Part shown: positions 1 to 23,852 of the stretch, one piece after another
Position numbering within the stretch: the stretch's first letter is position 1
How the letters are laid out: each line of letters starts with the position of its first letter
Virus record (IMG/VR): IMGVR_UViG_2585427740_000001
Reading direction: 5' to 3' (one strand)
Source of the DNA: a virus
Taxonomy: Duplodnaviria > Heunggongvirae > Uroviricota > Caudoviricetes
DNA length: 23,852 nucleotides
Notes under the pieces: model-generated
Told to the model about the DNA's origin: nothing
What the model saw: the letters and a program-made list of their open reading frames with translations, nothing else
Databases searched by the model: none
Position numbers and translations under genes: made by a program

Positions 1-1284
1 TTACTTCTTCGCCTCTGCAACCACTTTACTACCCACGCCGCGGTTATTGTATTCCCACATGCGGTTGTAGTTAGTGTCATTCAGATTGCGCTGTATTTCG
101 TCGTTATCATCTACGCTGCCGGTATTACCCGCAAACGGACGATTAGAGATCACCGCATCGGCCCACGGTTTAGCCGTGTTAAAACCTTCGTTGATGGCGC
201 TATCACGGATCACCACCTGACCGTTGGTATTGGCATCAACATCCAGCGAGCGGCCCAGTTGCGCCACACCATCACCGAAAGCATTGAAACGGCTGTTTAC
301 GGCGAGGAAACCGTAGTAAATGTTGGACAGCGTAGCCGGTGCAAACACATACGCTTCTTGCTGAGTACGTGAGTTCACCACGCGGAATTCGGTGTTATCG
401 AACACCACTGCGCCGCGACCAGAAACGATATCCACATCCCCTTCAATGTAGCTGTTGGTCACCAGCGTACGCGGCTGACGATTTGTTTCCAGACGGTTCT
501 GCACACCGCTGTTGGTGACAAAGAAGGTGTTCTGACGACCGAGAATGTTAACGTTGTTAATCTGTACCTGGTCACCATCAGTACGCAGTGCCACCGCCGG
601 ATGGTTACCTGCATCTACGCTATCGCCCAGCGTGTTTTCGATGGTCAGATTTTGCAGTTGCAGGCCATTGTTTTGTGACCAGAAGACCGCAGAGCAGAGA
701 ACACCGATACTGTCGCTGCGTTTGCTCTGGCAGCTATCGTACATATACCACGCTGGTTTACCTGGCATATATTTGCCGCGCGGGTTGACGTCGTGACGCC
801 AGTCGGCAGGGCTCATGCCACCATCAAGGGAAAGCCCAATCTTCACATCAATCGGTTTTTCACCTGTACCGTACAGAGTAATTCCACCCGGAGCGGCAGG
901 GACATATACCGTTCCCTGATACTCACCAGGCATCACGGCAATATACTGGCGCTTGTTGGTACGCTTGATAATTGCCGCATCTACCGCCGCCTGAATCGTG
1001 GTATGCGTTACACCTTGAGTGCCCGCCGGGCCGACAACAAAGTCAGGTTGCGCAGGCAGGGTAATCGGGGAAGGATTCCACGCTGCAGCACCTGGTGTCA
1101 GGGATGCAAAATAGTGTTGAGCATCGAAATTCTGCGCTTCTTTTGCCGACAGAATCGGGCGAGAAGAGGTACCAGGCGCGGTTTGATCAGAAGGACGTTG
1201 ATCGGGCGGGGTTGAGCTACAGGCGGTCAGCGTCACGCCAAAAGCCAATGCCAGCGCCAGACGGGAAACTGAAAATGTGTTCAC
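1..1284 (-). CDS. ybhC: YbhC-like outer-membrane lipoprotein (pectinesterase / acyl-CoA thioesterase family); chromosomal flank of the lambda attachment site
   Basis: 427-aa ORF complete in window (stop at 1-3). N-terminal signal peptide with lipobox LTAC. Sequence recalled as E. coli YbhC, which borders attB-lambda. Confidence 0.88.
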   Translation of the reverse strand: MNTFSVSRLALALAFGVTLTACSSTPPDQRPSDQTAPGTSSRPILSAKEAQNFDAQHYFASLTPGAAAWNPSPITLPAQPDFVVGPAGTQGVTHTTIQAAVDAAIIKRTNKRQYIAVMPGEYQGTVYVPAAPGGITLYGTGEKPIDVKIGLSLDGGMSPADWRHDVNPRGKYMPGKPAWYMYDSCQSKRSDSIGVLCSAVFWSQNNGLQLQNLTIENTLGDSVDAGNHPAVALRTDGDQVQINNVNILGRQNTFFVTNSGVQNRLETNRQPRTLVTNSYIEGDVDIVSGRGAVVFDNTEFRVVNSRTQQEAYVFAPATLSNIYYGFLAVNSRFNAFGDGVAQLGRSLDVDANTNGQVVIRDSAINEGFNTAKPWADAVISNRPFAGNTGSVDDNDEIQRNLNDTNYNRMWEYNNRGVGSKVVAEAKK

Positions 1285-11173: not shown

Positions 11174-12256
11174 TTAGAACTGGTAAACCATACCTACAGC
11201 AACGATATCATCGGTAGCAACGCCAGATGCTTTCGTGAAATCGCTCTTATCAATCAGGTTGATTTTGTAATCAACAAAAGTGGACATATTTTTGTTGAAG
11301 TAATAGGTTGCACCTACATCAATATATTCAACCAGGTCCTGATCACCCCACGCACCCAAGTCTTTTCCTTTAGATTGCAGGTAAGCAACGGACGGACGCA
11401 GACCGAAGTCGAACTGATATTGTGCAACTACTTCGAAGTTTTGTGCTTTGTTGGCAATATGGTTATTACCAAAAACAGTCATGTTCTGGGTTTCAGAATA
11501 GGTGGTAGCCAGATAGATGTTGTTCGCATCATATTTCAGACCAGCTGCCCATACTTCAGCATTTTGACCAGATGCATTCAGGCTGTTGTTACCGTAGATA
11601 ACCTGATTATTAGTGCGGTCAGATTTAGCATAGGTTGCACCTACACCGAATCCTTCATACTCATAAGTAGTGGAGAAACCGAAACCATCACCATTAGCTT
11701 CAGTTACGTCAGTGCGGTCATTTTTACCCTGATACTGAGCAGCAAAGTTCAGACCATCAACCAGACCAAAGAAGTCATTGTTACGATAAGTTGCAACACC
11801 TGTGGTGCGACCAGTCATGAATACATCTGTTTGGGTCCAGGTATCGCCACCGAATTCTGGCAGAACGTCGGTCCATGCACCAATATCGTATGCTACACCG
11901 TAGTTACGGCCATAATCGATGGAGCCGTAGTCACCGAATTTCAGGCCAGCGAAGGCAAGACGGGTTTTATCTTTGGAGGAACCTTGAGATTCAGCGCGGT
12001 TGCCTTTGAATTCATATTCCCACTGACCGAAACCAGTCAGTTGATCGTTGATTTGGGTTTCACCTTTGAAGCCAAGACGGGCATAAGTAGTATCACCATC
12101 ATCTGCATCATTAGAGGAGAAGTAGTGCTTAGCATTAACTTTCCCGTACAGATCCAGCTTGTTACTGTCTTTATTATAAATTTCAGCTGCCTGAGCAGAC
12201 ATCGCCATCAGTACTGATGCAGCTACAGCAGAAATTGCCACTGTTAATTTTTTCAT
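11174..12256 (-). CDS. nmpC: General porin of the OmpC/OmpF/NmpC(Lc) family
   Basis: 360 aa from [23 protein letters not shown] (signal peptide) to the C-terminal ...VGMVYQF. Resembles NmpC/Lc as recalled. The ORF-track ORF extends 20 codons further upstream, judged spurious. Confidence 0.92.
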
Positions 12257-12682
12257 CGTGAGCCCTTTTTTTGAACTATTATTAAAAAATGATGTCACTG
12301 CGCGATAAATATTCATCTAATCAATGTGATTATTTCAAGATGTAAGTTTTGGTTTCTCATTTGATTTGTGAAGTAGATCTCTATTTTTATCTGAACTTTT
12401 TCTATCGAATCCTATTCATGGCTCTTGGCTGAATAAAAATAAATCTATTAGCCAATTTATATTAATGGCTGTTATTTATAAGTGCTCTATAATTTGAAGA
12501 TTCAATTTAAACCAGCTAAAAATAACGCTGGAAATTATTTGTTGGTTATTTGTTGAGATTTGCTTATGTATTTGTAGTGGTGTTTTCAATACTCGGTAGC
12601 ATTCTCGCAAATATCATTTAGTGGTTTACGTACGTAAAAAATTGGTTATGCTGTTAAGAGTGGTTACTTCGTCACACAGCTT

Positions 12683-16279: not shown

Positions 16280-16795
16280 ATGGAAGTCAACAAAAAGCAG
16301 CTGGCTGACATTTTCGGTGCGAGTATCCGTACCATTCAGAACTGGCAGGAACAGGGAATGCCCGTTCTGCGAGGCGGTGGCAAGGGTAATGAGGTGCTTT
16401 ATGACTCTGCCGCCGTCATAAAATGGTATGCCGAAAGGGATGCTGAAATTGAGAACGAAAAGCTGCGCCGGGAGGTTGAAGAACTGCGGCAGGCCAGCGA
16501 GGCAGATCTCCAGCCAGGGACTATTGAGTACGAACGCCATCGACTTACGCGTGCGCAGGCCGACGCACAGGAACTGAAGAATGCCAGAGACTCCGCTGAA
16601 GTGGTGGAAACCGCATTCTGTACTTTCGTGTTGTCGCGGATCGCAGGTGAAATTGCCAGTATTCTCGACGGGATCCCCCTGTCGGTGCAGCGGCGTTTTC
16701 CGGAACTGGAAAACCGACATGTTGATTTCCTGAAACGGGATATCATCAAAGCCATGAACAAAGCAGCCGCGCTGGATGAACTGATACCGTTATGA
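16280..16795 (+). CDS. nu1: Terminase small subunit Nu1, C-terminally altered (171 aa; the last ~10 residues of lambda Nu1 are replaced by a single L and a stop)
   Basis: Translation MEVNKKQLADIFGASIRTIQNWQEQGMPVLRGGGKGNEVLYDSAAVIKWYAERD... matches lambda Nu1 through ...AALDELIP, then diverges at about 16789. Confidence 0.9.
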   Translation: MEVNKKQLADIFGASIRTIQNWQEQGMPVLRGGGKGNEVLYDSAAVIKWYAERDAEIENEKLRREVEELRQASEADLQPGTIEYERHRLTRAQADAQELKNARDSAEVVETAFCTFVLSRIAGEIASILDGIPLSVQRRFPELENRHVDFLKRDIIKAMNKAAALDELIPL

Positions 16796-17286: not shown

Positions 17287-20250
17287 ATGGCAGTAAAGAT
17301 TTCAGGTGTACTGAAAGACGGCACAGGAAAACCGGTACAGAACTGCACAATCCAGCTGAAAGCAAAACGTAACAGCACCGCGGTGGTGGTGAACACGCTG
17401 GCCTCAGAAAATCCGGATGAAGCCGGGCGTTACAGCATGGACGTTGAGTACGGTCAGTACAGCGTTATTCTGTTGGTGGAAGGATTCCCGCCGTCACATG
17501 CCGGGACCATCACCGTGTATGAAGATTCCCGACCCGGTACGCTGAATGATTTTCTCGGTGCCATGACGGAGGATGATGCCCGTCCGGAGGCTCTGCGCCG
17601 TTTTGAACTGATGGTGGAAGAGGTGGCGCGTAACGCGTCCGCAGTGGCACAGAACACGGCAGCCGCGAAGAAGTCAGCCAGTGATGCCAGCACATCTGCC
17701 AGTGAGGCGGCAACTCATACAACCGATGCTGCAGGCTCAGCTCGTGCCGCCAGCACGTCAGCCGGACAGGCTGCATCATCTGCTCAGTCAGCATCTTCCA
17801 GCGCAGGAACGGCATCAACAAAGGCCAGTGAAGCATCGAAAAGTGCTGCTGCTGCAGAGTCCTCAAAAAGCGCGGCAGCTACCAGTGCCGCTGCGGCGAA
17901 AACGTCAGAAACGAATGCGGCAGCGTCACAACAATCAGCAGCCACTTCTGCATCCGCCGCGACCACGAAGGCGTCAGAAGCTGCCACCTCAGCCCGGGAT
18001 GCGGCGGCCTCAAAAGAGGCGGCAAAATCATCAGAAACGAGCGCAGCCTCGAGCGCCAGTAGTGCAGCCTCCTCGGCAACAGCGGCAGGAAATTCCGCGA
18101 AGGCGGCAAAAACGTCCGAGACGAACGCTAAGTCTTCTGAGACGGCAGCAGCACAGAGTGCCTCCGCAGCAGCAGACTCAAAAACAGCGGCTGCCTCATC
18201 TGCCAGCGCCGCGTCAACAAATGCCGGGCAGGCCTCAGCCAGTGCCACCGCTGCCGGAAAGTCGGCAGAAAGCGCCGCATCATCCGCTTCAACAGCCACA
18301 ACGAAGGCTGGCGAAGCCACTGAACAGGCCACGGCAGCAGCGAGGTCAGCTTCCGCAGCGAAGACATCCGAAACGAACGCGAAAGCGTCGGAAACCAGCG
18401 CAGAATCCTCAAAAACGGCTGCCGCATCGTCAGCCAGTTCGGCGGCGTCATCGGCATCATCGGCGTCTGCTTCAAAAGATGAGGCGACCAGACAGGCGTC
18501 AGCAGCGAAGGGCAGCGCCACGACGGCATCCACGAAGGCGACAGAGGCAGCTGGCAGTGCGACGGCGGCAGCTCAGAGCAAAAGTACGGCGGAATCCGCG
18601 GCAACGCGCGCCGAGACAGCAGCAAAACGGGCAGAGGATATTGCATCCGCCGTGGCGCTTGAGGATGCGAGCACGACGAAAAAGGGGATAGTACAGCTCA
18701 GCAGTGCGACTAACAGCACTTCCGAGTCACTGGCGGCAACGCCAAAAGCCGTTAAGGCCGCGTATGAGCTGGCTAACGGGAAATACACCGCACAGGATGC
18801 AACGACAGCACAGAAAGGGATAGTTCAGCTTAGCAACGCGACCAACAGCACATCTGAAATGCTGGCGGCAACGCCAAAGTCGGTAAAGGCAGCCTATGAC
18901 CTTGCTAACGGGAAATATACTGCTCAGGACGCTACGACAGCACAAAAAGGAATTGTCCAGCTCAGTAGTGCAACCAACAGCGCATCTGAAACGCTTGCCG
19001 CGACACCGAAAGCAGTGAAAGCAGCTAATGATAATGCGAATGGTCGGGTACCTTCTGCCCGTAAGGTGAATGGTAAGGCGCTTTCAGCGGATATAACACT
19101 GACGCCGAAAGATATTGGTACGCTTAACTCAACAACAATGTCATTCAGCGGTGGTGCTGGTTGGTTCAAATTAGCAACGGTAACCATGCCACAGGCGAGT
19201 TCTGTTGTTTCAATTACGTTGATTGGTGGCGCGGGATTTAACGTGGGGTCACCTCAACAGGCAGGTATATCTGAACTTGTTTTGCGTGCAGGTAATGGTA
19301 ATCCGAAGGGGATTACTGGTGCTTTATGGCAGCGCACATCGACAGGGTTTACAAATTTTGCCTGGGTCAATACATCTGGTGATACTTACGATATTTACGT
19401 TGCAATCGGAAATTATGCGACTGGTGTAAATATTCAATGGGATTATACCAGTAATGCCAGCGTGACGATTCATACGTCACCAGCATATTCTGCTAATAAG
19501 CCGGAAGGGTTAACGGACGGTACAGTTTATTCACTCTATACGCCATCAGAGCAGTTTTATCCGCCTGGCGCACCAATCCCGTGGCCATCAGATACCGTTC
19601 CGTCTGGCTATGCCCTGATGCAGGGGCAGACTTTTGACAAATCTGCATACCCGAAACTTGCAGCCGCTTATCCGTCAGCCGTGATCCCTGATATGCGTGG
19701 CTGGACGATTAAGGGCAACCCCGCCAGTGGTCGTGCCGTATTGTCTCAGGAACAGGACGGCATTAAATCGCACACCCACAGCGCCAGCGCATCCAGTACG
19801 GATTTGGGGACGAAAAACACATCGTCGTTTGATTACGGAACCAAATCCACGAATAACACCGGGGCGCATACCCATAGTATTAGCGGGACTGCAAATAGTG
19901 CCGGTGCGCACCAACACAAGAGTTCCGGTGCATTTGGTGGCACGAACACGAGCATTTTCCCTAATGGTTATACCGCGATTTCAAATCTAAGCGCGGGGAT
20001 TATGAGCACAACAAGCGGTAGTGGCCAGACTCGTAATGCAGGGAAGACATCATCAGATGGTGCTCATACCCACTCGCTGTCCGGCACTGCTGCAAGCGCA
20101 GGCGCACATGCACATACTGTCGGTATTGGTGCTCATACGCACTCCGTTGCGATTGGCTCACACGGACACACCATCACCGTTAACGCTGCTGGTAACGCGG
20201 AAAACACCGTCAAAAACATCGCATTTAACTATATTGTGAGGCTTGCATAA
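17287..20250 (+). CDS. stf: Side tail fibre protein Stf (about 987 aa from ATG 17287), with long Ala/Ser/Thr-rich low-complexity region, three ~43-aa tandem repeats and a His-rich C-terminal domain
   Basis: N-terminus [30 protein letters not shown]... and C-terminus ...[11 protein letters not shown] match lambda Stf as recalled. ORF-track ORF begins 2 codons upstream at GTG. Confidence 0.92.
18673..19050 (+). repeat. Three tandem ~129-132-nt repeats inside stf (unit encodes [19 protein letters not shown](S/M)[12 protein letters not shown](E/D)[11 protein letters not shown])
   Basis: Repeated peptide and nucleotide blocks starting near 18673, 18802 and 18934, read directly. Confidence 0.8.
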
Positions 20251-20831
20251 TGGCATTCAGAATGAGTGAACAACCACGGACCATAAAAATTTATAATCTG
20301 CTGGCCGGAACTAATGAATTTATTGGTGAAGGTGATGCATATATTCCGCCTCATACAGGTCTGCCAGCAAACAGTACCGATATTGCACCGCCAGATATTC
20401 CGGCTGGCTTCGTGGCTGTTTTCAACAGTGATGAGTCATCGTGGCATCTTGTTGAAGACCATCGGGGTAAAACAGTTTATGACGTGGCATCAGGGGACGC
20501 GTTATTTATTTCTGAACTCGGCTCATTACCGGAAAATGTTACCTGGTTATCCCCGGAAGGGGAGTTTCAGAAGTGGAACGGCACAGCCTGGGTGAAGGAT
20601 ACGGAAGCAGAAAAACTGTTCCGGATCCGGGAGGTGGAAGAAACAAAAAACAGCCTGATGCAGGTAGCCAGTGAGCATATAGCGCCGCTTCAGGATGCTG
20701 TGGATCTGGAGATCGCAACGGAGGAAGAAACCTTGTTGCTGGAAGCCTGGAAAAAGTATCGGGTATTGCTGAACCGTGTTGATACGTCAACTGCACAGGA
20801 TATTGAATGGCCAGTAGCACCTATAGGGTAA
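20250..20831 (+). CDS. tfa: Tail fibre assembly chaperone Tfa
   Basis: 193-aa translation [51 protein letters not shown]... matches lambda Tfa as recalled. ATG overlaps the stf stop. Confidence 0.95.
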
Positions 20832-21689
20832 ATTCGTAATGATTACCTAAATACGTTATTCTTTTGTTCAAAAAGTGATTTTGCTATAGATAGGGAGTAT
20901 GTTCTTGGATTAAGAATAAAAATCGCCATGAAAGAGCTTCATGGCGAGTACATAAACGTACAAAATGTGATGAAAGTAGAGTGGCGTAAGCCACTATATT
21001 AAGATGTGACAATAGCGAAGAAAAGTAAATAACATTTTATGGACGTTTAATTGTTAATTATAAAAACTAGAGTGCCCGATATTGTTTACCTTGCTTTAAA
21101 ATAATGTACTCAAACCAAATTTTTGAGCTAAAAGCTCAAATAATATAAATGCAATAATAATGTTTAATAAGACAATTAGCTTGCTTTGTATTTTCATTTC
21201 GGAATACTGTTAAGTAACTTTGATGACCCTAACAATAGATCGGAATTTTCTTAGAGTCAATGGTCACTGTTTTTGCTTGCAAAGCAAATGTTTTGGTGGT
21301 TATAAGTTGTCTTAATATAGTCACGCATGCAACTTGTTCCATGCGGAGATTAAAGATTGGAATATAACGCTAAGATGGAATTAAATTACATTTGCAATAA
21401 TCAATTTATTATTACTCAATAATTACCGATATTATTATTGTAAATTAATCATTAGAGTGCAAAAAGAAATGTAACGGCAAAATAAGAGGACGATAGCTGA
21501 GAAAAAAGCGTGCTTTCCCAATCTGGGGCAAATCACGTCTGAATGACACCTGAAAACAGGTGGTAGCCTCAAGAAGGCTTGGAATATTCTTCTTTAATGT
21601 TATGTAATTCATTGATTTTTCGTGTACGATTTAAAGACATTTATTCCAAGAAAAATTTTTAACTCTTTGATTTTTCGACTCTGTATCAT

Positions 21690-21751
21690 CGGTCTCGAAA
21701 ACCGGAGTAGGGGCAACTCTACCGGGGGTTCAAATCCCCCTCTCTCCGCCA
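21690..21751 (+). other. 3' fragment (~62 nt) of tRNA-Ser(CGA): anticodon stem-loop, variable arm, T-arm and acceptor 3' end with CCA; 5' half absent
   Basis: CGGTCTCGAAAACCGGAGTAGGGGCAACTCTACCGGGGGTTCAAATCCCCCTCTCTCCGCCA matches the recalled 3' portion of E. coli serU-type tRNA-Ser. The preceding sequence cannot form the acceptor/D arms. Confidence 0.75.
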
Positions 21752-22335
21752 CTTTATCAATGACTTATCTCCCGACTTCCCGCCTTGCTTTTCCTAAACA
21801 GAACAATCGTAGAATATTCTTGAAGGGTTAGATCGTCACTGTTTTCTGTTCGATACTGTGACATTCAGCACTTGATTCGCTATGGATCTGACAGGAAGGT
21901 TTTGAGCGAAAATTTGCAGTTATTCAGTCGTTTTCTTATCGGTCACCATTATTCTTTTAGACATTGATCCTACAAAGCTGCCGCAAAGTTGGTGGTGGGA
22001 ACTGAAGTTGCGTAGAGAAGGGGTCAATACCCGGAGGCAAACATGGGCTGGCAAAAGTGTAGCGGTATTAGGCGCAGCTATTTAGCCTAGTTATGTTTTA
22101 TGAAAACTTGATATCATATAAGTGTCTTACTTATTGGCTGTAAATAAGTTTTTCCTAAGGAATTGTTTCTTGAGTATCATTTGTAACTGTAACGGAATTT
22201 ATAATCCTTTGCTTTATTGTTACGGTATTTTTTATCACACCCTATTTTTTATGTGGTTTTTTATACTGAAGTTTGGCAAAGTGAACTTTATATGCATATA
22301 CTTCATCCTGGTTTCAGTTAAGTTGGGTGGATGAT

Positions 22336-23079
22336 ATGGCAACTACATGTTCAGTTATATTGATTTTGGAGTCCTTTGATGTTTATTTCGGAAAAGAGAG
22401 TGTGTTTCTGGAGAGAGGTTCATCTGTACTTGTCGACTCTAGCTCTAGAGATTTTTTCCTGACATATCCTGAAAGAGTGATAGTGGCGGATTTTGGCGCT
22501 GAGTTTATTAGTCGCTATTTGAAAGCTAATAACTTAAGGGATATTTCTGATTGTAGGGAATATCCATCTTATTTAAAAATAAACTTTGCTGACTTCAGTT
22601 TAATTAAAGGATTAATTAGTTGGGCTAATCACTGTGCTGAATACATAGAAATTTTTGATGAGTCTATTGCTTTTACATGTCTCTCTGCATTTTCTTCTGA
22701 AAAACAATTTGGAGTATTTCTGTTTGAATGTTTGAAAAGCACAGGGGCTAAAGTTAAAACGATTATTCATACGGATTTATCTGCACCATGGCGTCTTAAG
22801 GATATATCATCAAGATTATATCTCAGCGAAAGTTTACTAAAGAGGAAATTGAAAGAAGAGGGGGTATCATTCAGTAAGATCATACTTGATGAGAGGATGC
22901 AAATGGCTGAATATTTACTCAGCACTCGTTGTTATCCTATTAGTAAAGTAGCTAAGGTCTGTGGTTATGCCAGTGTCTCATACTTTACTTATGTATTTAG
23001 ACGTTATTTTGGTGTTTCTCCAAGTCAATACTCTCAGAGCAGTTCAGAAAGTAAAATTCTTACTCACCAGGGAATCTGA
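22336..23079 (+). CDS. AraC/XylS-family transcriptional regulator (AppY/EnvY-like), about 247 aa
   Basis: C-terminal AraC-type HTH signature (...WRLKDISSRLYLSESLLKRKLKEEGVSFSKIILDERMQMAEYLL...KVCGYASVSYFTYVFRRYFGVSPSQY). Low-GC gene; in-frame GTG 3 codons upstream is the ORF-track start. Confidence 0.85.
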   Translation: MATTCSVILILESFDVYFGKESVFLERGSSVLVDSSSRDFFLTYPERVIVADFGAEFISRYLKANNLRDISDCREYPSYLKINFADFSLIKGLISWANHCAEYIEIFDESIAFTCLSAFSSEKQFGVFLFECLKSTGAKVKTIIHTDLSAPWRLKDISSRLYLSESLLKRKLKEEGVSFSKIILDERMQMAEYLLSTRCYPISKVAKVCGYASVSYFTYVFRRYFGVSPSQYSQSSSESKILTHQGI

Positions 23080-23590
23080 TCATTGTTCTTGCCCCCTTAT
23101 TTCCAGACAGGGGGTGTATCTTAAGTTAACGTTACCCGCTGACGTCGATATTCTCGCGGAGAGCGATAACCCAACGCACTGTGCGGATGGTTTTCATTGT
23201 AATGTTCGATCGCCACTGCAAGATTATGCAATGCCGTTCTTACATTCGGTTTCGGCATGAACGCGATGTAGTCTTCCTTCATCGTTTTCACGAACCTTTC
23301 TGCCATTCCATTACTCTGAGGACTGCTGATTGCCGTTGTGCAGGGCTCCAGATTCAACTCTCTGGCGAACTGCCATGTTTCATGCGCTCTATACGCTGAA
23401 CCGTTATCTGTCAGCCACTGGATGGACTGTTCCGGTACTTTATCGCCAAAGCGTTTTTCTATCGCTCCTAACATGACATCCTGCACTGTCGCTTTATCGT
23501 AACCTCCCGTGCTTGCGGCCCAGTCTATGGCTTCACGATCGCAACAGTCCAGGGCGAACGTAACACGCAGTTTTGAATCGCCACGGGTTT
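23077..23590 (-). mobile_element. IS2-like (IS3 family) element fragment: terminal region plus 3' part of the transposase orfB
   Basis: Terminal sequence TTGCCCCCTTATTTCCAGACA resembles the recalled IS2 end. The orfB C-terminal translation matches IS2 InsD as recalled (...TVQDVMLGA...WLTDNGS.Y...[12 protein letters not shown]). Confidence 0.7.
23121..23585 (-). pseudogene. IS2-like transposase orfB, C-terminal ~155 codons only (5' part removed)
   Basis: ORF-track ORF 23121-23486 continues open upstream to a TAA at about 23586 (…[34 protein letters not shown]…). No orfA or N-terminal orfB upstream on this strand. Confidence 0.75.
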
Positions 23591-23630
23591 AACAGACACC
23601 TCAGAGTCATTTAAGATGGCTTAAAGAGAG

Positions 23631-23852
23631 GTGCCCATGAGCGGTAAGCGTTATCCCGAAGAGTTTAAAACTGAAGCAGTCAAACAGGTTGTTGATCGCG
23701 GTTATTCTGTTGCCAGCGTTGCAACACGTCTCGATATCACCACCCACAGCCTTTATGCCTGGATAAAGAAGTACGGTCCGGATTACTCCACTTTTTCATC
23801 AAGCCAATCCGCCCACCACTGCATCATTTCTCTGCGCTTATCGAGATACTGA
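23631..23852 (+). CDS. IS3-family transposase OrfA-like HTH protein (N-terminal part typical; C-terminus atypical, possibly disrupted)
   Basis: MSGKRYPEEFKTEAVKQVVDRGYSVASVATRLDITTHSLYAWIKKYGPD resembles IS3-family OrfA HTH domains. RBS AGAGAGGTGCCC-ATG. Opposite orientation to the IS2-like orfB fragment. Confidence 0.6.
   Translation: MPMSGKRYPEEFKTEAVKQVVDRGYSVASVATRLDITTHSLYAWIKKYGPDYSTFSSSQSAHHCIISLRLSRY

Follow-up and report, generated by a model that had tools for sequence, protein, structure and literature searches.

A three-piece scar of two IS3-family stubs and an integrase remnant at the right end of a defective lambda-like prophage

Results

Three gene fragments are joined just inside the right end of the prophage

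The stretch of DNA analysed here (the window; 23,852 nucleotides) holds a defective lambda-like prophage that occupies the lambda attachment site (attB, ybhC...ybhB-bioA). It opens with ybhC (1-1284, minus strand), followed by a lambda-type int gene (1419-2489), which encodes the functional integrase of this prophage, and then by xis. Relatives of the prophage variously lack immunity and replication genes or head and tail genes, and in the window the region of the small terminase subunit gene almost directly abuts lom and the tail-fibre genes. At the end of the phage b-region, immediately inside attR (the right prophage end), the final ~770 bases of the window join fragments of three broken genes to one another; we call this arrangement the scar. 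The b-region of lambda is dispensable, so insertions are tolerated there. In identical loci of complete genomes, the gene remnant at the end of the window extends for another 14 nt; next come the sib/tI hairpin, the P arm of attP, the core of attR (CTTTTTTATACTAACTTGAGCG) and finally ybhB-bioA. The features of the scar and its left neighbour, in order along the window, are these:

22336..23079, plus strand: AraC-family regulator gene (patE-like), the left neighbour of the scar
23084..23573, minus strand: IS-A, the 3' 490 bp of an ISEc48-like, IS2-related element of the IS3 family, with an intact right inverted repeat
23121-23573, minus strand: orfB' of IS-A, the last 150 codons and the stop
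23574..23784, plus strand: IS-B, the 5' 211 bp of a 1229-bp ISEhe3-like element of the IS3 family, with an intact left inverted repeat
23637-23783, plus strand: orfA' of IS-B, 49 of 92 codons from the ATG at 23637, comprising the helix-turn-helix part
23637..23852, plus strand: chimeric 71-codon ORF, 49 OrfA codons and 22 codons antisense to the integrase remnant
23780..23784, no strand: GGATT, a 5-bp microhomology between IS-B and the integrase flank
23783..23852, minus strand: 3' remnant of an IntS-type (Sf6/HK620/N7) tyrosine integrase gene, which runs to the window-equivalent position 23866

The matches of the scar pieces are all 97-100% identical, with E-values from 0 to 1e-105, and are not due to chance. 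PGAP annotates all three pieces as incomplete or as pseudogenes.

To the left of the scar, the AraC-family gene is an ORF with Pfam HTH_AraC and HTH_18 matches that ends in a TGA stop codon at 23077-23079, and PGAP calls a CDS at the same coordinates in the identical locus of strain RM10410. Its counterpart in O157:H7 is 99.7% identical at the nucleotide level and likewise carries an IS-A stub. We refer to the gene as 'patE-like' on the basis of the location of this counterpart in the O157:H7 prophage and of a review.

IS-A is the 3' stub of an ISEc48-like element

The terminal inverted repeat of IS-A (TGTTCTTGCCCCCTTATTTCCAGACAGG) starts at 23084, such that the end of the element lies 4 nt past the AraC stop codon. 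This terminus (TGTTCTTGCCCCC...) has the 5'-TG start of an intact end: the flanks of two other copies (L002 and L015) and of the window differ immediately outside it, and independent copies in other replicons diverge from one another exactly at TGTTCTTGCC. Inward from the terminus runs the 3' part of orfB, whose 150-residue product matches Pfam rve (profile positions 24-102 of 102) and rve_3; the DDE domain is thus present only as a fragment, with its N-terminal part missing. In the DDE enzymes of the IS3 family, the first catalytic aspartate lies upstream of the part of orfB retained in IS-A.

IS-A is 97.6-98% identical in nucleotides and 96.7% identical in amino acids to copies with the PGAP label 'IS3-like element ISEc48 family', and 99.2% identical in nucleotides to a plasmid-borne E. 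coli derivative of 688 bp with an internal deletion. This derivative (L003) was dropped as a guide to how ISEc48 continues beyond the stub, and the full-length copy at positions 1609-2944 of L015 (1336 bp, with the canonical orfA-frameshift-orfB layout) was taken as the reference. IS2 shares its subfamily architecture with IS-A and has a similar terminus (...TTGCCCC..ATTTCCAGACA...); however, at 69.9% amino acid and 70.5% nucleotide identity over the fragment (measured against PGAP-labelled IS2), IS-A is too divergent to be IS2, and ISEc48 is far closer. Judged by these labelled copies, IS-A is best described as ISEc48-like, while 'IS2-like' is fair but less precise.

Of ISEc48, IS-A shares the terminal inverted repeat and the 3' half of orfB. 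A complete ISEc48 measures about 1336 bp, whereas IS-A survives as 490 bp (about 37%), with a single inverted repeat and with orfB reduced to its C-terminal half. Homology stops at 23573/4, and orfA, the frameshift site, the left inverted repeat, the target duplication and the N-terminal part of orfB are absent; the window also holds no second copy of the IS-A terminus. An original prediction made from the sequence had described an IS2-like terminus and the last ~155 codons of orfB on the minus strand with no orfA. The terminus, the strand and the missing orfA are borne out by the inverted repeat at 23084 and the rve/rve_3 matches, but the codon count is 150, and position 23077, where the predicted range begins, belongs to the stop codon of the AraC-family gene.

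IS-B is the 5' stub of an ISEhe3-like element

IS-B begins at 23574, the first base of TGAATCGCCACGGGTTTAACAGACAC, with a left inverted repeat (TGAATCGCCACGGG...) that again has a 5'-TG start, and the flanks of the copies in L004 and L005 diverge exactly there. An RBS (AAAGAGAGGTGCCC) precedes the ATG of orfA' at 23637, and the product matches Pfam HTH_Tnp_1 (PF01527) over residues 3-47 with E=1.2e-14, in agreement with the plus-strand, IS3-family orfA with RBS and ATG that had been predicted. The stub (211 bp, of which 210 bp aligned) is 100% identical to many plasmid copies, and such identical copies are common on plasmids of Klebsiella, Enterobacter, Citrobacter and Pantoea. Published papers report ISEhe3 in these hosts too.

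A full-length copy of the element lies at positions 2501-3729 of L004. It measures 1229 bp, has TG...CA ends whose repeats pair at 13/13 positions at the tips, and is flanked by a 3-bp target duplication (GTC). Its 92-codon orfA encodes HTH_Tnp_1, the A7G slippery site lies at nucleotide 303, and orfB is read in the -1 frame. Over its whole length it is 88.7% identical in nucleotides to the copy annotated as ISEhe3 in Shigella phage SfIV, and we name IS-B 'ISEhe3-like' for its likeness to that annotated copy. The full-length element shares its IS3-family build with ISEhe3; in the window no more than its initial 211 bp remain. The homology breaks off at 23784 (nucleotide 211 of 1229), and the frameshift site, orfB and the right inverted repeat are absent from the window, as is any second copy of the IS-B terminus. 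Second copies of either terminus would have pointed to a composite transposon or to a target duplication. Both stubs lack a complete transposase and a second end, so IS-A cannot transpose on its own, and neither can IS-B.

The third piece is the 3' end of an IntS-type integrase gene

In identical loci the integrase remnant comprises the last 27 codons and the stop (27 of 386 codons; 84 bp of a 1158-bp gene), and the window holds the stop and the last 22 codons. In protein sequence (IYNHAQYLDKRREMMQWWADWLDEKVE*) it does not differ from the C-terminal end of the integrase of phage N7, and over 57 bp it agrees with the int gene of Sf6 at 100% identity; HK620, CUS-3, HK633 and other phages also match. 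The catalytic residues of tyrosine recombinases are R-K-H-R-H-Y; the remnant gives no Pfam match, and the full catalytic domain is absent. In this lineage the IS-B stub has taken the place of the DNA downstream of the stop codon. In phage 434, the same integrase remnant is found at the same spot, bordering the tI/sib terminator and attP on their left, but without IS-B; where the AraC cassette would be, 434 has NleC/NleH/NleB-type effector genes and an IS1414 fragment.

The reading frame of orfA' runs on into this third piece. The resulting chimeric ORF ends in a 22-codon tail (YSTFSSSQSAHHCIISLRLSRY*) that is the integrase remnant read on the wrong strand, and its TGA stop codon is formed by the last three bases of the window. 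What had been noted as an atypical C-terminus of OrfA therefore turns out to be a second breakpoint at 23780-23784, beyond which the opposite strand carries the last part of an integrase gene, a third fragment that had been overlooked.

One joint bears the mark of transposition and the other of a deletion

IS-A and IS-B meet at 23573|23574, with a 1-nt ambiguity (i.e., one T can be assigned to either element). At this point ISEc48 reads ...ACGCAGTTTTTCGCC, while the window reads ...ACGCAGTTT|TGAATCGCC. Internal orfB sequence of IS-A thus meets IS-B exactly at the terminal repeat of IS-B and not near 23590, the breakpoint first proposed, which is off by ~16 nt. Because an intact IS end fused to internal IS sequence is the signature of a transposase-made joint, we accept from the sequence that IS-B transposed into IS-A.

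The other end of IS-B has a different character. Exact homology to IS-B ends at 23784, and homology to N7 and 434 begins at 23780, so the two overlap in the five bases GGATT (as seen in alignments with L004 and with the phages N7 (L010), Sf6 (L009) and 434 (L008)). These five bases are exact in IS-B, and 4 of the 5 are found just past the integrase stop codon in N7 and 434, the nearest IS-free relatives. GGATT is probably the crossover point of the deletion that truncated IS-B; an illegitimate-recombination mechanism for this deletion fits the microhomology and is what we infer from it.

In a true nest of one IS within another, an intact inner terminus abuts the coding sequence of the outer element, and this is also the case in the scar. 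In such a nest, however, the outer element then resumes with a duplicated target. Here IS-A does not resume beyond IS-B and no duplicated target follows; the integrase remnant comes instead. Queries for the reciprocal IS-B/IS-A junction, made synthetically from the last 80 bp of IS-B, a 3-bp duplication and the continuation of ISEc48, found no place with at least 80% coverage in 5,426 complete E. coli genomes or in the 72,556 plasmids of PLSDB, and a gapped exact pattern for the junction gave no match in the GTDB species representative genomes. The scar therefore shows only half of what defines a nest, and no ancestor with the other half was found. The prediction of one IS inserted into another holds insofar as there are two IS3-family elements in opposite orientation with a transposase-made joint. 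It does not hold insofar as the outer IS was said to be interrupted by an orfA gene: no more than 211 bp of the inner element are present, the outer one never resumes and the reciprocal junction is absent.

The junctions appear to be inherited together

The full 853-nt stretch 23000-23852, which spans all three junctions, is shared at 99.9% identity or more by 185 complete genomes, whose sources are birds, pigs, humans and old NCTC strains. The IS-A/IS-B junction alone occurs in 184 of the 5,426 complete E. coli genomes. Because these counts match, the junctions would seem to travel together as one inherited set. The block from the AraC-family gene to the integrase remnant is also found in the phages PhiR70_1, mEp332 and ev099 (three genomes, four records) at 99.5-99.8% identity, placed between the tail-fibre genes and attP/int. 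Loci differ by 0-7 substitutions over 2.1 kb, too few to judge selection on orfA'.

The AraC-family gene, or this gene with its joint to IS-A, occurs in 654 genomes, including other types of prophage. We opened three of these other contexts: the O157:H7 prophage, whose tail-fibre module is invertible, and, elsewhere, two related prophages. In all three, homology to the window begins at a common left boundary (21689/21690) and stops inside IS-A at differing points, so that the inner truncation points of the stub are 23331 and 23557 in other prophages and 23573 in the window. Because the AraC/IS-A joint travels with the AraC cassette in the 654 genomes and in other prophage types, it is most likely the oldest event of the scar. 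The shared left boundary and the differing end points likewise suggest that this joint is the oldest and that the IS-A stub was trimmed independently in different lineages, with the joints to IS-B and to the integrase remnant specific to the lambda-att lineage.

A state that precedes the arrival of IS-B (i.e., the AraC-family gene followed by a longer IS-A) was found in none of the complete E. coli genomes. The query for it joined 400 bp of the AraC gene to the IS-A stub (490 bp) and to the 300 bp that follow in ISEc48, and no genome exceeded 75% coverage, the value that the scar itself gives. The 490-bp stub of the window is the longest AraC-adjacent ISEc48 stub found in complete genomes.

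Discussion

Starting from the observed identities, breakpoints, intact termini and distribution, we consider it very probable that the scar is a non-functional, three-piece fossil in a dispensable b-region, made in four steps. An ISEc48-like IS would first have inserted 4 nt downstream of the patE-like AraC gene. An ISEhe3-like IS would then have transposed into the orfB of this element, giving the exact joint 23573|23574, either by a simple insertion that was later trimmed or by an intramolecular transposition with loss of the remainder of IS-A. In a third step, a deletion at GGATT would have brought nucleotide 211 of IS-B up against a site just past the stop codon of an older integrase remnant near sib/attP, removing the rest of IS-B and whatever lay beyond. 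Since then, the scar would have been passed down in one piece together with the phage arm. The order of the second and third steps is, like the deletion mechanism and the absence of function, what we infer from the arrangement. Neither the reciprocal-junction search nor the search for the AraC gene with a longer IS-A returned an intact or less-decayed intermediate, and the event order and the route of insertion followed by deletion are for that reason not directly demonstrable. The microhomology also speaks against this account to some degree, being short (5 bp) and matching the nearest IS-free relatives at only 4 of its positions.

This end of the prophage had been taken as an insertion hotspot, which would make it a live site that draws repeated, independent IS insertions. 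Such a reading would accommodate the different IS debris that other phages carry in the same arm, for example the IS1414 fragment between effector genes in 434, and the AraC/IS-A stub that is cut at three different points among prophages; the established dispensability of the b-region and its tolerance of insertions would also suit it. However, the IS-A/IS-B junction and the 853-nt stretch are nearly equal in number (184 and 185) and the scar recurs in three phage genomes, which indicates that each junction most likely arose once. No full-length or recent IS lies at the scar in the window, and mere tolerance of insertions accounts for the pattern without any targeting. A hotspot is thus unlikely; the junction counts and phage records point to one old history in a dispensable region, and 'hotspot' is better replaced by a dispensable arm that tolerates debris. 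It is more improbable still, to the point of being negligible, that the scar is one known IS whose own genes are natively arranged in an unusual way. Nothing beyond the adjacency of two transposase fragments speaks for this, whereas the fragments match two elements whose full-length copies are separate, each with its own inverted repeats and a standard orfA-orfB layout, and they lie on opposite strands with their joint exactly at the terminus of one of them. An artefact of assembly or a chimera at the end of the window might be suspected from the position of the scar against the window edge, where the last triplet is the stop codon of the chimeric ORF, but many complete genomes, assembled independently of one another, carry the identical sequence straight on into sib, attR and ybhB, and this explanation can be given almost no weight.

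A retained function of the truncated OrfA would make the scar more than debris. OrfA-type proteins of the IS3 family bind the inverted repeats of their own element and modulate transposition, and the HTH-only OrfA' might be expressed as a small DNA-binding protein, for example as a trans-inhibitor of ISEhe3-like transposition or as a regulator. In keeping with this, the HTH_Tnp_1 region, the RBS and a native promoter-like site in the inverted repeat of IS-B (23589-23617) are intact, the ORF is open for 71 codons and the block is maintained in phage genome records. On the other hand, the leucine-zipper/multimerisation half of OrfA is gone, with 49 of 92 codons left, and the 22-residue tail is antisense read-through of another gene. 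Promoter and terminator counts in the scar were judged not to exceed those of shuffled sequence (two promoter-like sites against a mean of 1.0), PGAP calls the ORF a pseudogene, and recency explains the conservation. An Rfam scan of the scar gave no match. Expression of a functional OrfA' is therefore very unlikely, and the scar most likely does nothing.

With the same low probability, one part of the scar may have been put to use. The OrfA' stub (49 residues with a 22-residue foreign tail) could be a domesticated DNA-binding protein of lambdoid phages that damps ISEhe3-like transposition or binds repeat-like sites, or the ISEc48 stub could be a recombination handle of the AraC cassette. If the latter were true, such a handle would let the patE-like AraC cassette move between unrelated prophage backbones.

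The non-functional fossil that we favour consists of known kinds of parts (IS3-family stubs, an IntS-type remnant and lambda-type sib/att sites) that are already annotated publicly, and it contains no new element or mechanism. Lambdoid prophages routinely carry IS debris in their non-essential arm, and the scar matters very little in itself. It is nonetheless a precise lineage marker, in that its three unique junctions tag one lambda-att family of phages and prophages, and it shows where a portable cassette with the patE-like regulator ends on the right; this cassette is found, with differing truncation points, in at least three prophage contexts, including that of E. coli O157:H7.

An AraC-family cassette ends in the ISEc48-like stub

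A low-GC cassette (~29-43% GC) that carries an AraC-family regulator has the ISEc48-like stub as its right end.

21689-23573: low-GC cassette with AraC-family regulator
22336-23079: AraC-family gene within the cassette

This cassette is present in 654 of 5,426 complete E. coli genomes, where it occupies at least three distinct prophage contexts with an identical left boundary (21689/21690). Its right end is always the same ISEc48-like stub, trimmed at a position equivalent to 23331, 23557 or 23573. O157:H7 is among the carriers (identity 99.4-99.7%), and the location of the gene, at about 313 kb within a prophage of O157:H7, makes patE (z0321, OI-8), an acid-resistance activator, the candidate identity that we suggest for it. 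In O157:H7 SS52 the stub ends at the equivalent of 23557 (L012 5229 onward; joint GGGCGA|TTCATCTGG), and beyond it lie a different tyrosine recombinase and several genes that the annotation assigns to an 'ABC-three component system'; in O157:H7, another integrative or defence element thus adjoins the stub.

Relatives of the two IS3-family stubs

The nearest relative of the ISEc48-like stub is a 688-bp element on plasmid pRHB19-C13_2 (CP057646.1; L003 2001-2688), with 99.2% identity. A MITE-like derivative, this ISEc48-like element is internally deleted and retains its two terminal repeats; the plasmid record carries no annotation for it.

The second stub consists of the left end and orfA start of an ISEhe3-like element. 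K-12-derived genomes hold a fragment of the same left end and orfA start, 97.2% identical and adjoining yagB; a further cryptic prophage region therefore also holds a stub from this IS family. The copy on K. pneumoniae plasmid pCR14_4 (L005 2501-2814) has only its first 315 bp in common with the stub, after which it departs into a different IS3-family transposase body, which suggests a hybrid IS made by recombination in orfA.

A deleted, mosaic prophage with an integrase remnant

The prophage that carries these stubs is heavily deleted and mosaic. Its small terminase (nohD-like) region passes almost straight into lom and the side-tail-fibre genes (~16784-16789), with no head or tail-shaft genes. 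Deletions differ in the related prophages of E. coli APEC O78 and RM10410, and the left arm of the APEC O78 prophage contains IS2. bor is among the genes of the window prophage, and IS009, the sole Rfam family at or above its gathering score in a scan of the window, matches within the tail-fibre assembly gene (20250-20831).

11174-12316, minus strand: ompC/nmpC-like porin gene
20593-20791, plus strand: full-length match to IS009 (RF02111), 218 bits
23783-23852: integrase remnant (phage 434 counterpart, L008 5001-5087)

In 434-type lambda-att phages, an 84-bp remnant of the 3' end of an Sf6/HK620/N7-type integrase gene lies directly left of the sib/tI hairpin, and phage 434 also keeps N7-like sequence downstream of the integrase stop codon. 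The remnant has the look of a relic left at the moron/int boundary when P22-like and lambda-like phages exchanged modules there.
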